From: a virus
Taxonomy: Duplodnaviria; Heunggongvirae; Uroviricota; Caudoviricetes
DNA length: 10,567 nt
Reading direction: 5' to 3' (one strand)
IMG/VR virus record: IMGVR_UViG_2529292726_000017
The position numbers and the translations under genes are program-made. The notes under the pieces were generated by a model. That model was given only the letters and a program-made list of their open reading frames with translations. It was not told the DNA's origin and did not search any database. This document shows positions 1 to 10,239 of this stretch, one piece after another; position 1 is the stretch's first letter; the number at the start of each line of letters is the position of its first letter.

Positions 1-2111
<2,111 letters not shown>

Positions 2112-2140
<29 letters not shown>

Positions 2141-2836
2141 AACGCACACCTCCGGAAATACCTTCCCCAAGATGCATCAGTTCTTCGTCCGTTCGCTCCG
2201 GTATCCCGTTCTCTTCCGGTAAAAGGCTGAAATCAGCCACCGCAGCATCACTGCTGCCGGACACCATTCTCACGATCAATGCCTTCAGCGAGGCAAACTG
2301 CGCATCCATCCACACATCACTGAAGCTCTGCATCCGGAAATAATCGCCCCACTCACCAAGCTCAGTGGCTGACATTTCCGACAGCATCCGCCGCCAGTCT
2401 GCCCGCCGGAACTCCCGGGCAAGCCGCATGACAAACTGCATTTCCCGCGTCAGGACTTTTCCGGCGTCAGCACCTCATGCTCCAAATCCCCGGCATTCTC
2501 AATGGCTCCCATACCGCTCAGCGACAGAACCATCTCCGCCCCCGCTCCCAGGGCATCATACGACCATGTTGTAATAACGGATGCGCAAAGCGTCTCAACA
2601 TCCTGAGACTGTTCCGCATTCCACAGTGAGCGGGAAACCAGCCAGGCATTGATATCCATCCCCATCCGCAGAAAAGCAATCTGTCGTTCAGCCTCCGGCA
2701 GTTCTCCCTCTTCGGCATCAAACTTTGCCGTTCGCTGCTGAACAAACGCCAGATATTCAATTCTCTGCAGCCCGGACAGCTCACTGAGCACCACGGACTG
2801 CTTTTCATAATTAAACGTGCCCTGTTTCAGAAACAT
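2112..2836 (-). CDS. tail assembly chaperone G-T fusion (lambda gpGT-like), made by programmed -1 frameshift near 2456..2464
   Basis: T-frame ORF 2112..2441 (…ADWRRMLSEMSATELGEWGDYF…GGVRYG) resembles lambda gpT (WRRMLS and GGVRYG motifs). It lies in the -1 frame relative to G and is open from 2474 through the G stop. No independent RBS or start is needed. Confidence 0.7.
2450..2836 (-). CDS. tail assembly chaperone G (lambda gpG-like)
   Basis: MFLKQGTFNYEKQSVVLSELSGLQRIEYLAF… versus lambda G MFLKTESFEHNGVTVTLSELSALQRIEHLAL. Start ATG 2836..2834 with GGTGGAG 6 nt upstream; stop TGA 2452..2450. Confidence 0.85.
   Translation of the reverse strand: MFLKQGTFNYEKQSVVLSELSGLQRIEYLAFVQQRTAKFDAEEGELPEAERQIAFLRMGMDINAWLVSRSLWNAEQSQDVETLCASVITTWSYDALGAGAEMVLSLSGMGAIENAGDLEHEVLTPEKS
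2456..2464 (-). promoter_or_regulatory. candidate -1 ribosomal frameshift site (CCG GAA AAG, slippery G_GAA_AAG) at the 3' end of G
   Basis: Minus-strand sequence ...ACG CCG GAA AAG TCC TGA. Slipping tRNA-Lys from AAG to AAA enters the open T frame (GGA AAA GTC CTG ACG CGG GAA ATG CAG...). Position is equivalent to the lambda G GGA AAG site, with one substitution. Confidence 0.55.
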
Positions 2837-2852
2837 CATGTTCTCCACCTGC

Positions 2853-2876
2853 AAAAAAGCCCCGGATAACCGGGGC
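2853..2876 (-). terminator. intrinsic terminator-like hairpin between V and G
   Basis: Minus strand reads GCCCCGG-TTAT-CCGGGGC followed by TTTTTT: a perfect 7-bp GC-rich stem, 4-nt loop and 6-T run, about 20 nt after the V stop. Confidence 0.6.
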
Positions 2877-2896
2877 AAATGATGAGTATCGTCCTG

Positions 2897-3640
2897 TTAA
2901 CCTGCGGCGCTGACAGCCACCGCAGCCACTGCCACAAAATCGCCGTCAGAAGTCATGCCCACAATGCTGACACTGCCCTGCTTCACGCCTTTCACCGTGG
3001 CCACAAGCCCGTTCAGGGTCACCGTGGCAGTCTGTGGATCTGTCGAATGCACACTGATCGCTTTGTCACTGGCTCCGTCAGGTTTTACTGTAAAGGTCAG
3101 CGTGGTGGTTGCTCCCACTTTTACACTGGCAGATGCCGGTGCCACCGTCAGCCCGGTAACGCTCACTGTTTCAGTGCCTTCCTCTGCCAGATACGGACGC
3201 CCCACACCGCTGATTTTCACTGTACGGGTCATCACGTCTTTTGAGGCAATGGTTTTACCCAGTGAGCTCAGCCAGCCACGGAAAACATCAACAGTGCCGT
3301 TGGGATATTTGATACGAAACGCGCAGACTTCACCGGAGTCGAACAACTGAACCAGTTTTTTCTGCCCGCTGTCACCCGGACGCCAGGCCAGCGTCGCCGA
3401 AGTATCACCGACGGATTTCTGCCCCTGGGTTGTCGTTTTCCAGTCTGCATCTTCATCATCGAGATAAGAGTCATCTTCTGCATCAGCGGTCATTTCGCCA
3501 GGTTGCAGATCCTTCACCATCGCAAGACGCAGCCAGTCAGTGTCCGATAAAGGGTTCGCAAACGCATCGCCCTTGCCGGTGTACATCCAGAACGTCGTTC
3601 CCGCACCTTTCGTTTTTGCCAGTGGATTTGGTGTGGTCAT
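2897..3640 (-). CDS. major tail (tail tube) protein, lambda gpV-like, with C-terminal Ig-like domain
   Basis: MTTPNPLAKTKGAGTTFWMYTGKGDAFANPLSDTDW…YLDDEDADW…NGTVDVFRGW closely parallels lambda V ([36 protein letters not shown]…SYLDDEDADW…NGTVDVFRGW). ATG 3640..3638 has AGGAGG 5 nt upstream; the track's 3646 start is GTG. C-terminal ~90 aa is T/V/S/A-rich, Ig-like. Confidence 0.9.
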   Translation of the reverse strand: MTTPNPLAKTKGAGTTFWMYTGKGDAFANPLSDTDWLRLAMVKDLQPGEMTADAEDDSYLDDEDADWKTTTQGQKSVGDTSATLAWRPGDSGQKKLVQLFDSGEVCAFRIKYPNGTVDVFRGWLSSLGKTIASKDVMTRTVKISGVGRPYLAEEGTETVSVTGLTVAPASASVKVGATTTLTFTVKPDGASDKAISVHSTDPQTATVTLNGLVATVKGVKQGSVSIVGMTSDGDFVAVAAVAVSAAG

Positions 3641-3651
3641 TGCCACCTCCT

Positions 3652-5317: not shown

Positions 5318-7276
5318 TTACGCCGTACATTTCACCAGACCGCGGTGATCAACTGGCGCGACACCGGCGTCAATACGCACTTTCGTTGTCACGCCATCCA
5401 CACTGAAGCCCTCCATCTGATCAATATATGGCGTATCCACACCGTTGAGATAAGCCACTTCAATCGTATCGGAGCCTTTGGACGCAGCCAGGTAGAAGGT
5501 GGTCTGGCTGTTATCATCAAGACGAGGCTCTGCAATAACGGTCGCAAAATCTTTCACCGGGTTAATAATACCGGCGTTAATGTCAGCCCCCTTGACACTT
5601 GAGGAGCGAATGACCCGGTTAGCAACAGACTCCATCGCCGTCGGTACCAGTACGAACGCAGGACGAATATTCAGATGACGCTCCCCCTCTTTCTGAACGC
5701 GCATCAACTGGCGGGCTTTATCCAGCGATGCCACGTCCATTGCAGCGCTCTCCAGTACGTTTGCATGTTTCGCTTTATCGAACAGACTTACATTATCTGT
5801 GGAGATTTTCGGGTTAGACGTCAGAATGGCATAAACCAGATCGGCAATGGTGGATTTCGCCGCACGGCCCAGCTTCATCGGGACATCGGTCAGCATATTC
5901 AGATCATCATTGATAATGGCCTGACGGGTGATACTGAACAGCTCGCCATAGGTCGCCAGTGCAATAGTGGCCTGTTTATCTCCGGTGGTGACGTATTTAT
6001 ATTCCGCCCCTTCACGCACCTGACGCAGAGCACTGAAGCCCCCCATACCCACACGATGGGCAATTTTAAAATCAGACAACTGACCTTTCCGCGTCCACTG
6101 TTCATAGGTTTCAGGAGCATCTTCCCAGCCCTGCAGAATGGCTTTGTTCGCAACATCCAGCAGAATATTACCGAAGTCAGACGTACTGTGTGTGAACGCC
6201 GCACCGACCATCTGCATCGGGTTATAACTGGAAACCCCAATACCCCGTTCAGTCAGTGACATACGGGCATATTCACGCAGGGTCATCCCGTTGTAGACAT
6301 TATCACGTTCGGTTTTTTCAAATCCGGCACGCGCCATCAGCGCCTGGCGGATCCCGTCCCCCACAAAATTACCGTTACCGGCATAAATATGAGCCGGGGT
6401 ATTTTTATTGGATGGCGTGGACTCGCGCCCCATCTCGTTCAACAGCTTTTCGCGGGCCTGCTCCAGCGAACATTCAGGATCGGCAAGACACTGAGCCTGC
6501 AGCGTCTGATAACGCCCGCCAAACATGGCAAACAGATCATTAATACCGTTTACACGCGCTTTTTGCTCTGCCAGTACCTGCGCACGGATACTGTTTTCAT
6601 CCACCACGGGTGCTGCTGCCTGCACTGGCGTCCGGGAGGCTGCAGGTTCATCATCCTGTACGCGTGGAGCACTGTTGCGTGGCGGAGTAATCATGTTTCG
6701 AATGGATTCCGGCATCTTTTTAAATTCCTCTGTACGTTTTGACTGAATACATGCCATTGCCTTAACGGCTGGCGTTACCTGATCAGCAAATCCATGTGCC
6801 AGACATTCGGCACCGGACATCCAGGTCTCATCCGCCAGCATGGCAGCAATTTCATCGGTGGTTTTCCCGGTTTTCTGTGCATAAGCGGGTAACAGAACCG
6901 CCTCAACTTTATCGAGCAGGTCGGCATAGGTGCGCATGTCCTCCGCATCACCGCCCGTAAAGCCAAATGGTTTATGAATCATCATGAAAGTGTTTTCCGG
7001 CATAATGACCGGGTTTCCCACCATCGCAATGACCGACGCCATTGACGCCGCCACACCGTCGACATAAACGGTAATGGACGCACCATGTGTTTTCAGCGCA
7101 TTAAAAATGGCGATGCCTTCAAAGACATCGCCACCCGGTGAATTAATATGGAGATTAATGTGGGTGATATCGCCCAGTGCATTCAGATCACTGATAAACT
7201 GCTTCGCTGTAACACCCCAGAAACCAATCTCGTCATAAATATAAATATCCGCGTCACTCTGGTGACCAGCCTGCAT
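5318..7276 (-). CDS. prohead protease (S49/ClpP-like) fused to major capsid protein in one ORF
   Basis: N-terminal part DIYIYDEIGFWGVTAKQF…INSPGGDVFEGIAIFNAL…VDGVAASMASVIAMVG… is S49/ClpP-like. A P/Q/A-rich linker follows, then an ~400-aa capsid-like domain ending …VAPVDHRGLVKCTA. Start taken as ATG 7276..7274, 14 nt after the portal stop (weak RBS); the track ORF extends to 7537 through the portal 3' end. Confidence 0.8.
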   Translation of the reverse strand: MQAGHQSDADIYIYDEIGFWGVTAKQFISDLNALGDITHINLHINSPGGDVFEGIAIFNALKTHGASITVYVDGVAASMASVIAMVGNPVIMPENTFMMIHKPFGFTGGDAEDMRTYADLLDKVEAVLLPAYAQKTGKTTDEIAAMLADETWMSGAECLAHGFADQVTPAVKAMACIQSKRTEEFKKMPESIRNMITPPRNSAPRVQDDEPAASRTPVQAAAPVVDENSIRAQVLAEQKARVNGINDLFAMFGGRYQTLQAQCLADPECSLEQAREKLLNEMGRESTPSNKNTPAHIYAGNGNFVGDGIRQALMARAGFEKTERDNVYNGMTLREYARMSLTERGIGVSSYNPMQMVGAAFTHSTSDFGNILLDVANKAILQGWEDAPETYEQWTRKGQLSDFKIAHRVGMGGFSALRQVREGAEYKYVTTGDKQATIALATYGELFSITRQAIINDDLNMLTDVPMKLGRAAKSTIADLVYAILTSNPKISTDNVSLFDKAKHANVLESAAMDVASLDKARQLMRVQKEGERHLNIRPAFVLVPTAMESVANRVIRSSSVKGADINAGIINPVKDFATVIAEPRLDDNSQTTFYLAASKGSDTIEVAYLNGVDTPYIDQMEGFSVDGVTTKVRIDAGVAPVDHRGLVKCTA

Positions 7277-7289
7277 CCTGAACCAGGAA

Positions 7290-8798
7290 TTATTCTTCGG
7301 ACTGGTCGTCGGTGTGCTGCGGCTCCTGTCGTTTCGTTGCGGCACTGCTGCCTCCTTTATCACTGGCCGGATCGGTATCAAATACCAGATCCAGCTTGCG
7401 GTTTTCATCAATTTCGGCCTTGCGCCGACGTTTGACATCATCCGGATTACGACCACCTGCACGTACCCAGTCTGATTCTGTCGCCGCTCCACCACGAATC
7501 TGGATTTTCCAGGCCTCAGCCTCCTTAACAGGGTCAATCCACGGCATCACCGGTCCGGAATACACCGCGGTATACAGTGAAGAACGGTCAAGATCGCGGG
7601 GTAGCCTGATAACACCGGATGCCACAGCCTGTTTCAGCCAGGCACGATACATCGGGCGGGTGACGGCACCAATAAACCAGTCCTGCAGGATCAGGTAGCC
7701 ATCAGTAGACTCAACCAGTTCCTGACGCTGGGCGCTGTAAGTGCCGTTATAGTTGCGTGCCGTACTGGAAAAACTCAGACGACTGCCCGCCGCCACGGCA
7801 CGCAACTGACCATTACGAAAAGTTTCAAGGTTAGGATTGGGACGATCCGACTTCACCATTCCGATTTCTTCGCCGGGTTTCAGATCGTCGTAAATAATGC
7901 CTGGCTGAATGGTAAGCTCGCGTTCATTCTCCTTGCTGCCATTACCATCCGGTTCATAGCTCTGCCCGTCGCCTTTCCGGATGTACATCCCCAGAGCAGC
8001 GGCGATCCTTGCTGCAGTCAGCTCAGAATCTTCATACTCTTTCAGGGCACTGAGGCGGATCAGCACACCGGACAACAAAGACGTCCCGCGCATCTGGTGC
8101 AGACGGCGAACAAATTTAAGATGCAGCATTCGCTCTGCATCCACTTCTTTGGTTTCCATCTGCCGCCCGGATACGGGACGGCTTTTATACACCAGATATT
8201 TTTCGGGACGCCCCCAGTCATCAACAAACACGCCCTGATTCAGCCTGTTGCTATCATCACTGGTCATGGGAATAAAGTCCGGCTCGAGCGCCTCCAGCCA
8301 GAAATTAACACCGGCAGAAGGCGTCAGGCTGTTTATGCGCCCGGAAACCATCTGGGCAAACACCTCACCATCGCGCAGCCAGGTACGCAGCATCAGACGT
8401 TCCAGCATCGGACGGGTAAACTGCCCGGTGACTTCCGGACTGACAGACCATTCACTCCATCGGGTGCGAATCTCCGCAGCCAGGTCACGGGCAATGGCCC
8501 CATTGCGTAATACCGGATGTGGCTCGACAATAATCCCGTTTTTCCCCACCACCCGTTCTTCCAGCTTGTCAAATACACCAATAACCAGATCGTGGTTGTT
8601 ATCAAGGTAACGGGCCTGCTCACGTAACGACACGGCCCCGTACTGGCTTAACTGGTCGGCAGTTCGGTTTTCCCGCCGGGCTTTGTGTGTCCGCGTCGTT
8701 TTTACGGCCTCATAAGCCTGGATCACCGCACGGGAACGCAGCCTTGCCGCTTTCCATCCTGGTGAAAAAACGCCAATCACATCATCAAGAATAGCCAT
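7290..8798 (-). CDS. portal protein (lambda gpB family)
   Basis: 502 aa from ATG 8798..8796 (MAILDDVIGVFSPGWKAARLRS…), GAGG 5 nt upstream; the ATG overlaps the W stop (TGATG). Size and position (after terminase and W, before protease) fit a portal, with scattered gpB-like motifs. The track ORF begins 24 codons upstream at 8870. Confidence 0.8.
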   Translation of the reverse strand: MAILDDVIGVFSPGWKAARLRSRAVIQAYEAVKTTRTHKARRENRTADQLSQYGAVSLREQARYLDNNHDLVIGVFDKLEERVVGKNGIIVEPHPVLRNGAIARDLAAEIRTRWSEWSVSPEVTGQFTRPMLERLMLRTWLRDGEVFAQMVSGRINSLTPSAGVNFWLEALEPDFIPMTSDDSNRLNQGVFVDDWGRPEKYLVYKSRPVSGRQMETKEVDAERMLHLKFVRRLHQMRGTSLLSGVLIRLSALKEYEDSELTAARIAAALGMYIRKGDGQSYEPDGNGSKENERELTIQPGIIYDDLKPGEEIGMVKSDRPNPNLETFRNGQLRAVAAGSRLSFSSTARNYNGTYSAQRQELVESTDGYLILQDWFIGAVTRPMYRAWLKQAVASGVIRLPRDLDRSSLYTAVYSGPVMPWIDPVKEAEAWKIQIRGGAATESDWVRAGGRNPDDVKRRRKAEIDENRKLDLVFDTDPASDKGGSSAATKRQEPQHTDDQSEE

Positions 8799-9010: not shown

Positions 9011-10239
9011 AACCATCCTCCGGAAGTCAGCCAGGGGTTAACATCGTCAGTTACTGTTTTCTTCCGTTTTTGTTTTTTAACAGGCGTGGATACCGGTTCC
9101 GGTGAGGGTGACGGTTCGGTACTGTCCGGGACACACTCCAGCCAGGTTTCCCGGCTCGCCCACTCCGGTGCATCCGGCCAGCGGATCTTTTCGTATCCAT
9201 GCAGAATGACCAGAGCCTCGGCATACACCATCAGGTCAAAAGCTTCGTTGGCACCGCGACCCGGCTTACTCCATTTCCCGTCACTACTCCGCTCTTCATA
9301 CGTCAGTTCGTCGTAAAACCAGCTCCCCAGCCAGTCAGGGAAATGCACATAGCCGGGACCTGGCGAGTCACGCCATAACGCGTTATTCACCCGGTCTTTC
9401 AGGGCATCCGTCTGAAGAAGCCAGAGCGGCACATCACCTGCGGCCTGCGCCCGTCGGCCCGTTCGTCCGGTGTTATCAGGGAATGTACGGGTGATCAGTT
9501 TTGCGCGCCGGATGCTGTCGCCCTTAAACAGGTAAATACGTTTACCAAGGCCATCACGACGGCAACGACGCCAGAATTTATAGGCATTATCAGTGACCCC
9601 GTCTTCACCGCCGGAGTCCACCGCCATTGCCATCAGTCGCATTTGTTGAGAAGGATCGGAGGCCAGCGGCCAGCTTTTATGAAAAACATCCGTCAGCAGG
9701 ACATCCCAGTCTTCCGGATAGCTGGCCGGATCAATTCGCTGGCTCTCCCCGTCGCTGTCACCGCGCAATGACTGCGTGATGTTGTAACGATCAATAATCC
9801 AGCGTTCGCCACGGCTGCCATAGCCCGTTACCTGAACCACAAAACGGCGATGACGTCCCGCCTGCACATCAACTGTCGCCACCAGGAAATTAACGCCATC
9901 CGGCACACTGCGGGAAGGAACTGGCTCTGCCCGCTGCTCAAGCAGTTCACTTTTTCGTTGCTCCATGCTGACACGGGGAAGATAAGGTAATCCCCAGTCG
10001 GTATTGATAACCGTCTTGAGTGTTTCTTCACTTCCGGTTGTCTCGTATTCCTGTTCTGCAGTAAGCAGTTTGTAAACGAGTTGCGAGAGTGTCTGGTAAG
10101 CAGCTGCCGGACCCTCCATCCAGAATGACGCAATACGTGAGCGTCGGGGATCACCATAACGACTGCCATCCGCATTGATGGATTCACCATCCCGCAACCA
10201 GACCCCACGTCCGTTCAGCTCACGTTTTTGTTCAGGCAT
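9007..10239 (-). pseudogene. terminase large subunit (lambda gpA-like), C-terminal ~410 aa only; N-terminal ATPase region absent
   Basis: …GVWLRDG…TDWGLPYLP…FLVATVDVQ…RFVVQVTGYG…WIIDR… is colinear with lambda gpA from about residue 280 to the end (lambda GIWTRDG…, YLTAGIDSQ…, MRVWGWG…, WLIDRQ). The frame has a stop at 10293..10291 and nothing resembling the gpA N-terminal 280 aa lies upstream; a plus-strand ORF occupies that space instead. Confidence 0.8.

Follow-up and report, generated by a model that had tools for sequence, protein, structure and literature searches.

Gene Organization of the Locus

The window, that is the whole stretch of 10,567 nucleotides that was analysed, holds the morphogenesis region of a lambda-like prophage of E. 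coli in which all genes lie on the minus strand, the order of transcription being terminase large subunit, portal, a ClpP-like protease/major capsid fusion, head-tail connector genes, V, G, T, and tape measure. The part of main interest comprises V (2897-3646), G (2450-2839), the T frame (2112-2474), and H (from 2140), all on the minus strand, with the start of H overlapping the end of T. The features are the following:

2897..3646, minus strand: tail tube gene V (Pfam PF16461 Phage_TTP_12, E 1.3e-66, and PF02368 Big_2, E 2e-11)
2859..2876, minus strand: intrinsic terminator-like hairpin between V and G (GCCCCGG-TTAT-CCGGGGC followed by T6)
2450..2839, minus strand: gene G, tail assembly chaperone (Pfam PF06894 Phage_TAC_2, lambda gpG, E 1.8e-39; 'phage tail assembly chaperone G' in RefSeq)
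2112..2456, minus strand: T segment after the predicted slip, 114 aa, VLTREMQF...GPDSQPGH, stop 2114-2112 (Pfam PF06223 Phage_tail_T, E 5.1e-15)
422..2140, minus strand: tape measure gene H, start ATG 2140 (Pfam PF06791 TMP_2, E 8.6e-49); the 3' end at 422 is approximate, mapped by arithmetic from a related RefSeq record

The product of V is a lambda-type TTP carrying an additional Big_2 domain, and its gene lies directly upstream of G. Homologues of G and T are recovered by tblastn in lambda, N15, phi80, and Gifsy-1. G measures 129 aa from ATG 2839 or 128 aa from ATG 2836 and ends at a TGA (2452-2450); the start at 2836 is favoured, judging from its 6-nt spacing from the GGAG at 2846-2843 and from homologues that begin with MFLK.

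Other details of the region concern the expression and arrangement of the neighbouring genes. The strong terminator-like hairpin with its T6 tail is located just upstream of the ribosome-binding site of G, an equivalent terminator is annotated in mEp460, Ayreon, N15, and HK225, and the element may lower the transcription of G, T, and H relative to V. The strong Shine-Dalgarno (SD) sequence of the tape measure gene, GGAGGTG (2153-2147, minus strand), consists of codons for the GGVRYG motif that is conserved at the C-terminus of T, so that a single sequence stretch has two roles. Further upstream in the order of transcription, one long ORF (5318-7537, minus strand) codes for a fusion of a ClpP-like prohead protease with a major capsid protein of the HK97 type and overlaps the end of the portal gene; its RefSeq name in a related genome is 'ClpP-like prohead protease/major capsid protein fusion protein'.

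The G/T Overlap and the Candidate Slip Site

The T frame is in -1 relative to G and is open from 2474 to the stop at 2114-2112; the +1 frame is closed. The two features that delimit and mark the junction are:

2475..2477, minus strand: TGA of the -1 frame, upstream limit of the 25-nt stretch open to a shift
2456..2462, minus strand: slippery heptamer G_GAA_AAG (zero-frame codons of G: CCG GAA AAG), the one place in the overlap for cognate -1 re-pairing

Due to the TGA at 2477-2475 on one side and the stop of G on the other, a shift is confined to 2474..2450, 25 nt, in agreement with the first-pass annotation, which had the T frame open only from 2474 and the shift falling within this short overlap. 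The zero-frame codons of the overlap, preceded by GAG, are GUG CUG ACG CCG GAA AAG UCC UGA, and among them only AAG, by moving to AAA, permits cognate re-pairing in the -1 frame; G_GAA_AAG is therefore the sole candidate, as had been proposed, and none of the other shift sites in the 25 nt allows such re-pairing. The heptamer does not conform to the canonical X_XXY_YYZ pattern, since AAG is canonical as YYZ and the XXX triplet is GGA, which is not a homotriplet. This near-canonical form does not argue against membership of the G/GT family, being that of the majority of its members (41/54, see below).

Slippage at GAA_AAG gives a 242-aa fusion, ...EHEVLTPEK|VLTREMQFVMRLAREF..., whose peptide at the junction, ...LTPEKVLTREMQF..., contains one K; the earlier form of this peptide, …LTPEK-KVLT…, is at variance with the translation if two lysines were meant. 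T is expected to be expressed not by itself but as the C-terminal portion of this fusion.

GGAAAAG occurs five times in the window against 1.5 expected. Three of the copies are on the minus strand; by frame arithmetic the one at 2462..2456 is read in the zero frame of its gene, and those at 1444-1438 and 5012-5006 are not. The remaining two, on the plus strand, are on the strand opposite to the genes. The significance of the slip site is argued here from relatives and not from the count within the window.

Conservation of the Junction in Related Phages

The 851-bp G/T region is 98-99.6% identical to that of phages phi458, Ayreon, mEp460, cdtI, and Tritos, and the G/T module is found in 1849 of 5426 complete E. 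coli genomes, about a third. Within the clade the heptamer GGAAAAG is present in all the close IMG/VR contigs (160/160), and codons nearby vary. A wider set was assembled from 16 annotated phages and 55 loci of a bacterial collection holding one genome per species, which together yield 54 distinct junctions with the following heptamers:

GGAAAAG: 41 of 54 distinct junctions
GGGAAAG (lambda type): 6 of 54
AAAAAAG: 2 of 54
CCCAAAA: 2 of 54
GGCAAAA: 2 of 54
GGGAAAA: 1 of 54

In these 54 junctions heptamer positions 4-6 are invariant (2.0 bits), and most flanking positions carry less than 0.7 bits. When the proteins are clustered at 80% identity, GGAAAAG is found in 21 of 30 clusters, which span Escherichia, Salmonella, Citrobacter, Kluyvera, Kosakonia, Enterobacter, Providencia, Sodalis, and other genera. 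The codons AAG and GAA at the slip site do not vary, though AAG accounts for only 24% of E. coli Lys codons. The heptamer, first G included, is selected at the nucleotide level.

The proteins tell of the same position. Fusions built by slipping at [GA]AA_AAG align unbroken across the 16 phages, including lambda, N15, phi80, and Gifsy-1, and the slip site occupies the same alignment column as the experimentally defined G_GGA_AAG of lambda. In the T frame, the pattern K-[VA]-[LF]-x-x-E-x-x-F-x-x-x-[LF]-A-R-E is conserved from directly after the slip Lys, which is what would be expected if translation entered the T frame exactly there.

The distance from the heptamer to the stop of G is 0, 3, or 15 nt among relatives, and some junctions show individual arrangements. 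In Gifsy-1 (L085, 651-700) a second in-frame A_AAG, as U_GAA_AAG, is placed exactly where the -1 frame opens. Phages of Providencia (L088, L120, L153) have CUG_GAA_AAG_UAG, with the stop directly after the heptamer, and the junctions of Kluyvera and Ewingella (L107, L109) read G_GCA_AAA_UAG, for which poor P-site re-pairing is predicted; the stop immediately 3' in both these groups recalls 'shifty stop' contexts.

Some loci of the collection are of doubtful origin. Junctions identical to that of lambda are carried by short contigs (L139-L144, L147, L148, L150), several with about 1x coverage by contig name, in assemblies labelled Kitasatospora, Pseudomonas, Oceanobacillus, Neobacillus, Shewanella, Leeuwenhoekiella, Chromatium, and others, and are almost certainly contaminating lambda DNA. 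Likewise, an E. coli-type prophage (L099, 99% identical) is present in a MAG labelled Bacillota, a taxon label that is probably a binning error.

The alignment with lambda-like G-T junctions that had been suggested as a check thus places the slip site in the lambda column and finds the same heptamer in the majority of junctions. The description of the site as a 'variant' is correct in relation to the G_GGA_AAG of lambda, but does not apply within the family, where GGAAAAG is the majority form and is annotated as a slippery sequence in N15: the GenBank record AF064539 has a misc_feature at 10027..10033, with the bases GGAAAAG, described as 'slippery sequence for -1 translational frameshift'. 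Two further records with this heptamer refer to the fusion, that of Gifsy-1 stating for T 'part of tail assembly chaperone gpG by translational frameshifting' and that of HK225 'tail assembly protein GT'. The site is an ordinary, already-known kind of recoding site and GGAAAAG is not new. A full-text literature search for GGAAAAG or 'G GAA AAG' together with frameshifting returned only an in-vitro EF-G study and nothing on phage GT.

The Pfam identities, the V-G-T-H order, and the unbroken alignment of the fusion with its relatives all agree with a G/G-T programmed -1 frameshift, as first proposed. The locus is accordingly read, with a probability of about 0.88, as the recoding site of the tail-assembly chaperones G/GT in a lambda-like prophage of E. 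coli, of the mEp460/cdtI/phi458 type. The G/GT frameshift belongs to textbook knowledge on long-tailed phages, and the value of this instance as a discovery is small; what the census adds is that the lambda G_GGA_AAG is a minority form, most junctions having the near-cognate G_GAA_AAG with its conserved first G.

Re-pairing of One or Two tRNAs at the Heptamer

A_AAG with tRNA-Lys is the most shift-prone tetramer in E. coli, and in the first reading of this DNA the site was considered a test of whether A-site Lys slippage alone is enough. The composition of base 1 of the heptamer does not favour the site as one that isolates this event. The base before GAA is G in 41 of 41 GGAAAAG junctions, across six codons for five amino acids (CCG 16, GCG 16, CUG 6, then UUG, GUG, and ACG), whereas G is found at only 41% of comparable four-fold third positions in the genes of the G/T family. 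Since this base is synonymous in the G frame and untranslated in the T frame, its conservation must act at the RNA level. On GGA the anticodon of tRNA-Glu (mnm5s2U-U-C) forms G:C at the first, G.U at the middle, and A:U at the third position, and the conservation of the base-1 G across different codons suggests that the P-site tRNA-Glu re-pairs from GAA to GGA. Tandem slippage with near-cognate P-site re-pairing is thus somewhat favoured over slippage in the A site only.

The competing mechanism is slippage of a single tRNA, in which tRNA-Lys alone moves on A_AAG, as at the G_CGA_AAG of IS1222, while tRNA-Glu remains static and the first G is irrelevant. Several observations speak in its behalf: A_AAG is by far the best E. 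coli tetramer; the pairing of tRNA-Glu on GGA has a second-position mismatch; and two members of the family carry G_GCA_AAA, a site at which the P-site tRNA would re-pair poorly. With AUG_GAA_AAG, a reconstituted E. coli system yielded mainly the zero-frame product, and the sequence was termed unfavourable in vitro owing to the second-position mismatch for tRNA-Glu. The review by Atkins et al. (2016) gives NNA_AAG motifs as naturally used, by IS1222; the same review recognises G_GA as an intermediate between hexanucleotide and full heptanucleotide sites. Against an irrelevant first G stand its invariance in the 41 GGAAAAG junctions, over six codons, compared with the 41% at comparable sites, and the identity of base 1 and base 2 (G_G) in every non-canonical member, which preserves first-position P-site pairing after the shift. 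Movement of tRNA-Lys alone is for these reasons considered the less likely account, with a real if smaller share of the support. The study behind the statement on natural NNA_AAG motifs is presumably that of Licznar et al. 2003.

Tandem slippage leads to a broader proposal, which is put forward tentatively: the G_GAA_AAG that serves as a 'hardly slippery' control in vitro would be the very heptamer favoured by selection in the GT chaperones of Enterobacterales phages (41 of 54 distinct junctions, each with its first G retained), so that the middle G.U re-pairing of tRNA-Glu would matter in vivo, the G:GT ratio would be doubly sensitive to tRNA thiolation, and an upstream GAGGUG might assist in the clade. 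If this is true, the ratio would be set by two mnm5s2U34 tRNAs (Glu and Lys) and be more thiolation-sensitive than in lambda. Both tRNA-Glu and tRNA-Lys are substrates of the 2-thiouridine pathway, which modulates lambda GT frameshifting, and phages with G_GAA_AAG may be more sensitive to this pathway of the host. G_GAA_AAG is a natural test case for the P-site re-pairing needed in low-level bacterial -1 frameshifting.

Candidate Stimulatory Elements

Elements that could raise the frequency of the shift were sought on both sides of the heptamer. Downstream, single-sequence folds of the 56 and 96 nt past the heptamer gave z scores of -0.72 and -0.04 against shuffles, and the consensus fold of 18 diverse relatives reached -0.91 kcal/mol with 0 covarying pairs; a downstream RNA stimulator is rejected, the folds being no more stable than shuffles and devoid of covariation. 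Upstream, one element is present in the window:

2471..2476, minus strand: SD-like GAGGUG, complementary to the 3' end of 16S rRNA (CACCUC), with the GAGG core ending 10 nt before the heptamer

GAGG at a spacing of 10 recurs in the mEp460/cdtI/phi458-type clade and in some other clades. An SD-like 4-mer at 6-17 nt upstream is found in 17 of 54 junctions against about 17% expected, a mild enrichment for which a conserved Glu codon and shared ancestry are confounding factors, and an upstream SD conserved throughout the family is rejected on these grounds. GAGGUG encodes a conserved Glu-Val/Ala and varies to GAGGCG within the clade. From its sequence and spacing the element is a possible clade-specific upstream stimulator of the dnaX kind.

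Proposed Synthesis of G and G-T

In the proposed mechanism most ribosomes would read G up to the TGA and release the chaperone of 128-129 aa, and a small fraction would slip back by one base on CCG_GAA_AAG. In this step tRNA-Lys (mnm5s2UUU) would move from AAG to AAA and, in a joint slip, tRNA-Glu from GAA to GGA, where it would pair as G:C, G.U, and A:U. The slipped ribosomes would continue with GUC CUG ACG... in the T frame and complete the 242-aa G-T fusion, ...LTPEK|VLTREMQF.... The efficiency of the event is presumed to be low and to be reached with no need of a downstream structure, and the upstream GAGGUG could possibly assist the shift.

Some observations speak against this mechanism. 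In vivo, A_AAG alone gives only about 0.15% frameshifting with no stimulator; even the best heptamers reach only about 0.3% by themselves, rising to about 3.7% in the most favourable 3' context. The negative result for a downstream structure, the lack of family-wide conservation of the SD-like element, and the mainly zero-frame product of AUG_GAA_AAG in vitro count against it likewise. Lambda produces GT at about 4% and depends on a G:GT ratio near 30:1; a low frameshift efficiency at the present site would fit this biology. If lambda is a guide, both proteins would coat the tape measure protein through their G part, the T part would recruit the tail tube protein, and a large excess of G over GT would be required for correct tail assembly.

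Alternative Routes to T

Public annotations imply a different origin of T, in which no frameshift takes place and the protein is made separately from its own AUG:

2439..2441, minus strand: annotated 'T' start ATG of GenBank/RefSeq annotations, probably no real start

An in-frame ATG is indeed present at 2441, and the mEp460, Tritos, and RefSeq E. coli entries list a 109-aa T as a CDS of its own. However, the only SD-like bases (GGGAA) abut this ATG, a spacing too short, and the codon is CTG in Gifsy-1 and in Citrobacter (L106); the starts picked for T by annotators differ between related phages, and the T-frame amino acids are conserved upstream of ATG 2441 as far back as the slip site. Independent initiation would also leave the nucleotide-level selection of the heptamer aside, and the T of lambda is known only as part of GT. 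Taken together, these points make a separately initiated T highly improbable. Slippage of RNA polymerase on the A4 run, giving an mRNA one base shorter, has practically no chance of being the cause, since, although a short A run is present in the site, the runs on which RNA polymerase is known to slip are far longer than A4, and GGAAAAG with fixed flanking G's and a fixed reading frame is a translational signature. Transcriptional slippage and ribosomal frameshifting are treated separately in the Atkins 2016 review.

Programmed ribosomal frameshifting from G into T remains the preferred reading, and it bears on the databases. In the records of mEp460, Tritos, Ayreon, and E. coli NZ_CP025851, T is given as a separate CDS from an internal ATG or later and the slippage join is absent, so that for a very common module the public records offer an N-terminally truncated T with no slippage join.

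Condition of the Prophage Copy

The tape measure gene of the window has lost its 3' end to an IS21-like insertion, and the translation of the left end of the window (1-422, minus strand) matches the N-terminus of an IS21-family IstA transposase. One RefSeq record, with 100% identity across window positions 2050-2900, shows the same arrangement, with a tape measure missing its C-terminus followed by the istA of ISEc10. With its tape measure broken by an IS element, this copy of the prophage is probably defective; its frameshift signal would then be inherited rather than currently needed, and the slip site in the window may no longer serve a function. The signal itself is identical to that of viable phages.

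Comparison with Known Recoding Systems

The closest systems are N15 gp14/gp15 (AF064539) and their counterparts in phi80, HK225, mEp213, and Gifsy-1, which share with the window the Pfam families, the gene order, the -1 geometry, and G_GAA_AAG. The proteins of this N15 group are only 36-59% identical to those of the window. In N15-type phages the stop of G follows the heptamer after 15 nt, against 3 nt in the window and in Gifsy-1, and N15 lacks the SD-like GAGG that the window has 10 nt upstream.

The G/GT pair of lambda, whose frameshift was reportedly placed at G_GGA_AAG by Levin, Hendrix and Casjens in 1993, has homologous proteins (about 36% identity), the same slip column, and the A-site movement of Lys AAG to AAA that is proposed for the window. 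GT is a minor product in lambda; in the window a downstream structure was not detected. The P-site codon is GAA (Glu) in the window and GGA (Gly) in lambda, and re-pairing therefore has a middle G.U in the former and is cognate in the latter; the residue before Lys is E in the window and G in lambda. T is also shorter, with 114 aa in the window against 144 aa in lambda.

IS1222 (G_CGA_AAG) and the cdd gene of B. subtilis (A_CGA_AAG) resemble what is proposed for the window in the A-site slip of tRNA-Lys from AAG to AAA and in low-level shifting, and in all of them the P-site codon ends in A and is non-slippery or poorly slippery. The window differs from IS1222 and cdd in that base 1 equals base 2 (G_GA), which keeps first- and third-position P-site pairing, and IS sites rely on a downstream structure, whereas none is seen in the window.

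E. coli dnaX (A_AAA_AAG, with an upstream SD and a downstream hairpin) likewise has Lys AAG in the A site. The SD of dnaX has a spacing of 10 nt, and its frameshifting requires this element; the SD-like sequence in the clade of the window ends at this distance upstream of the heptamer and is not conserved in the family, and the window lacks a stable hairpin or pseudoknot 5-9 nt past the heptamer. The efficiency expected for the window is a few percent at most, in comparison with about 50% in dnaX.
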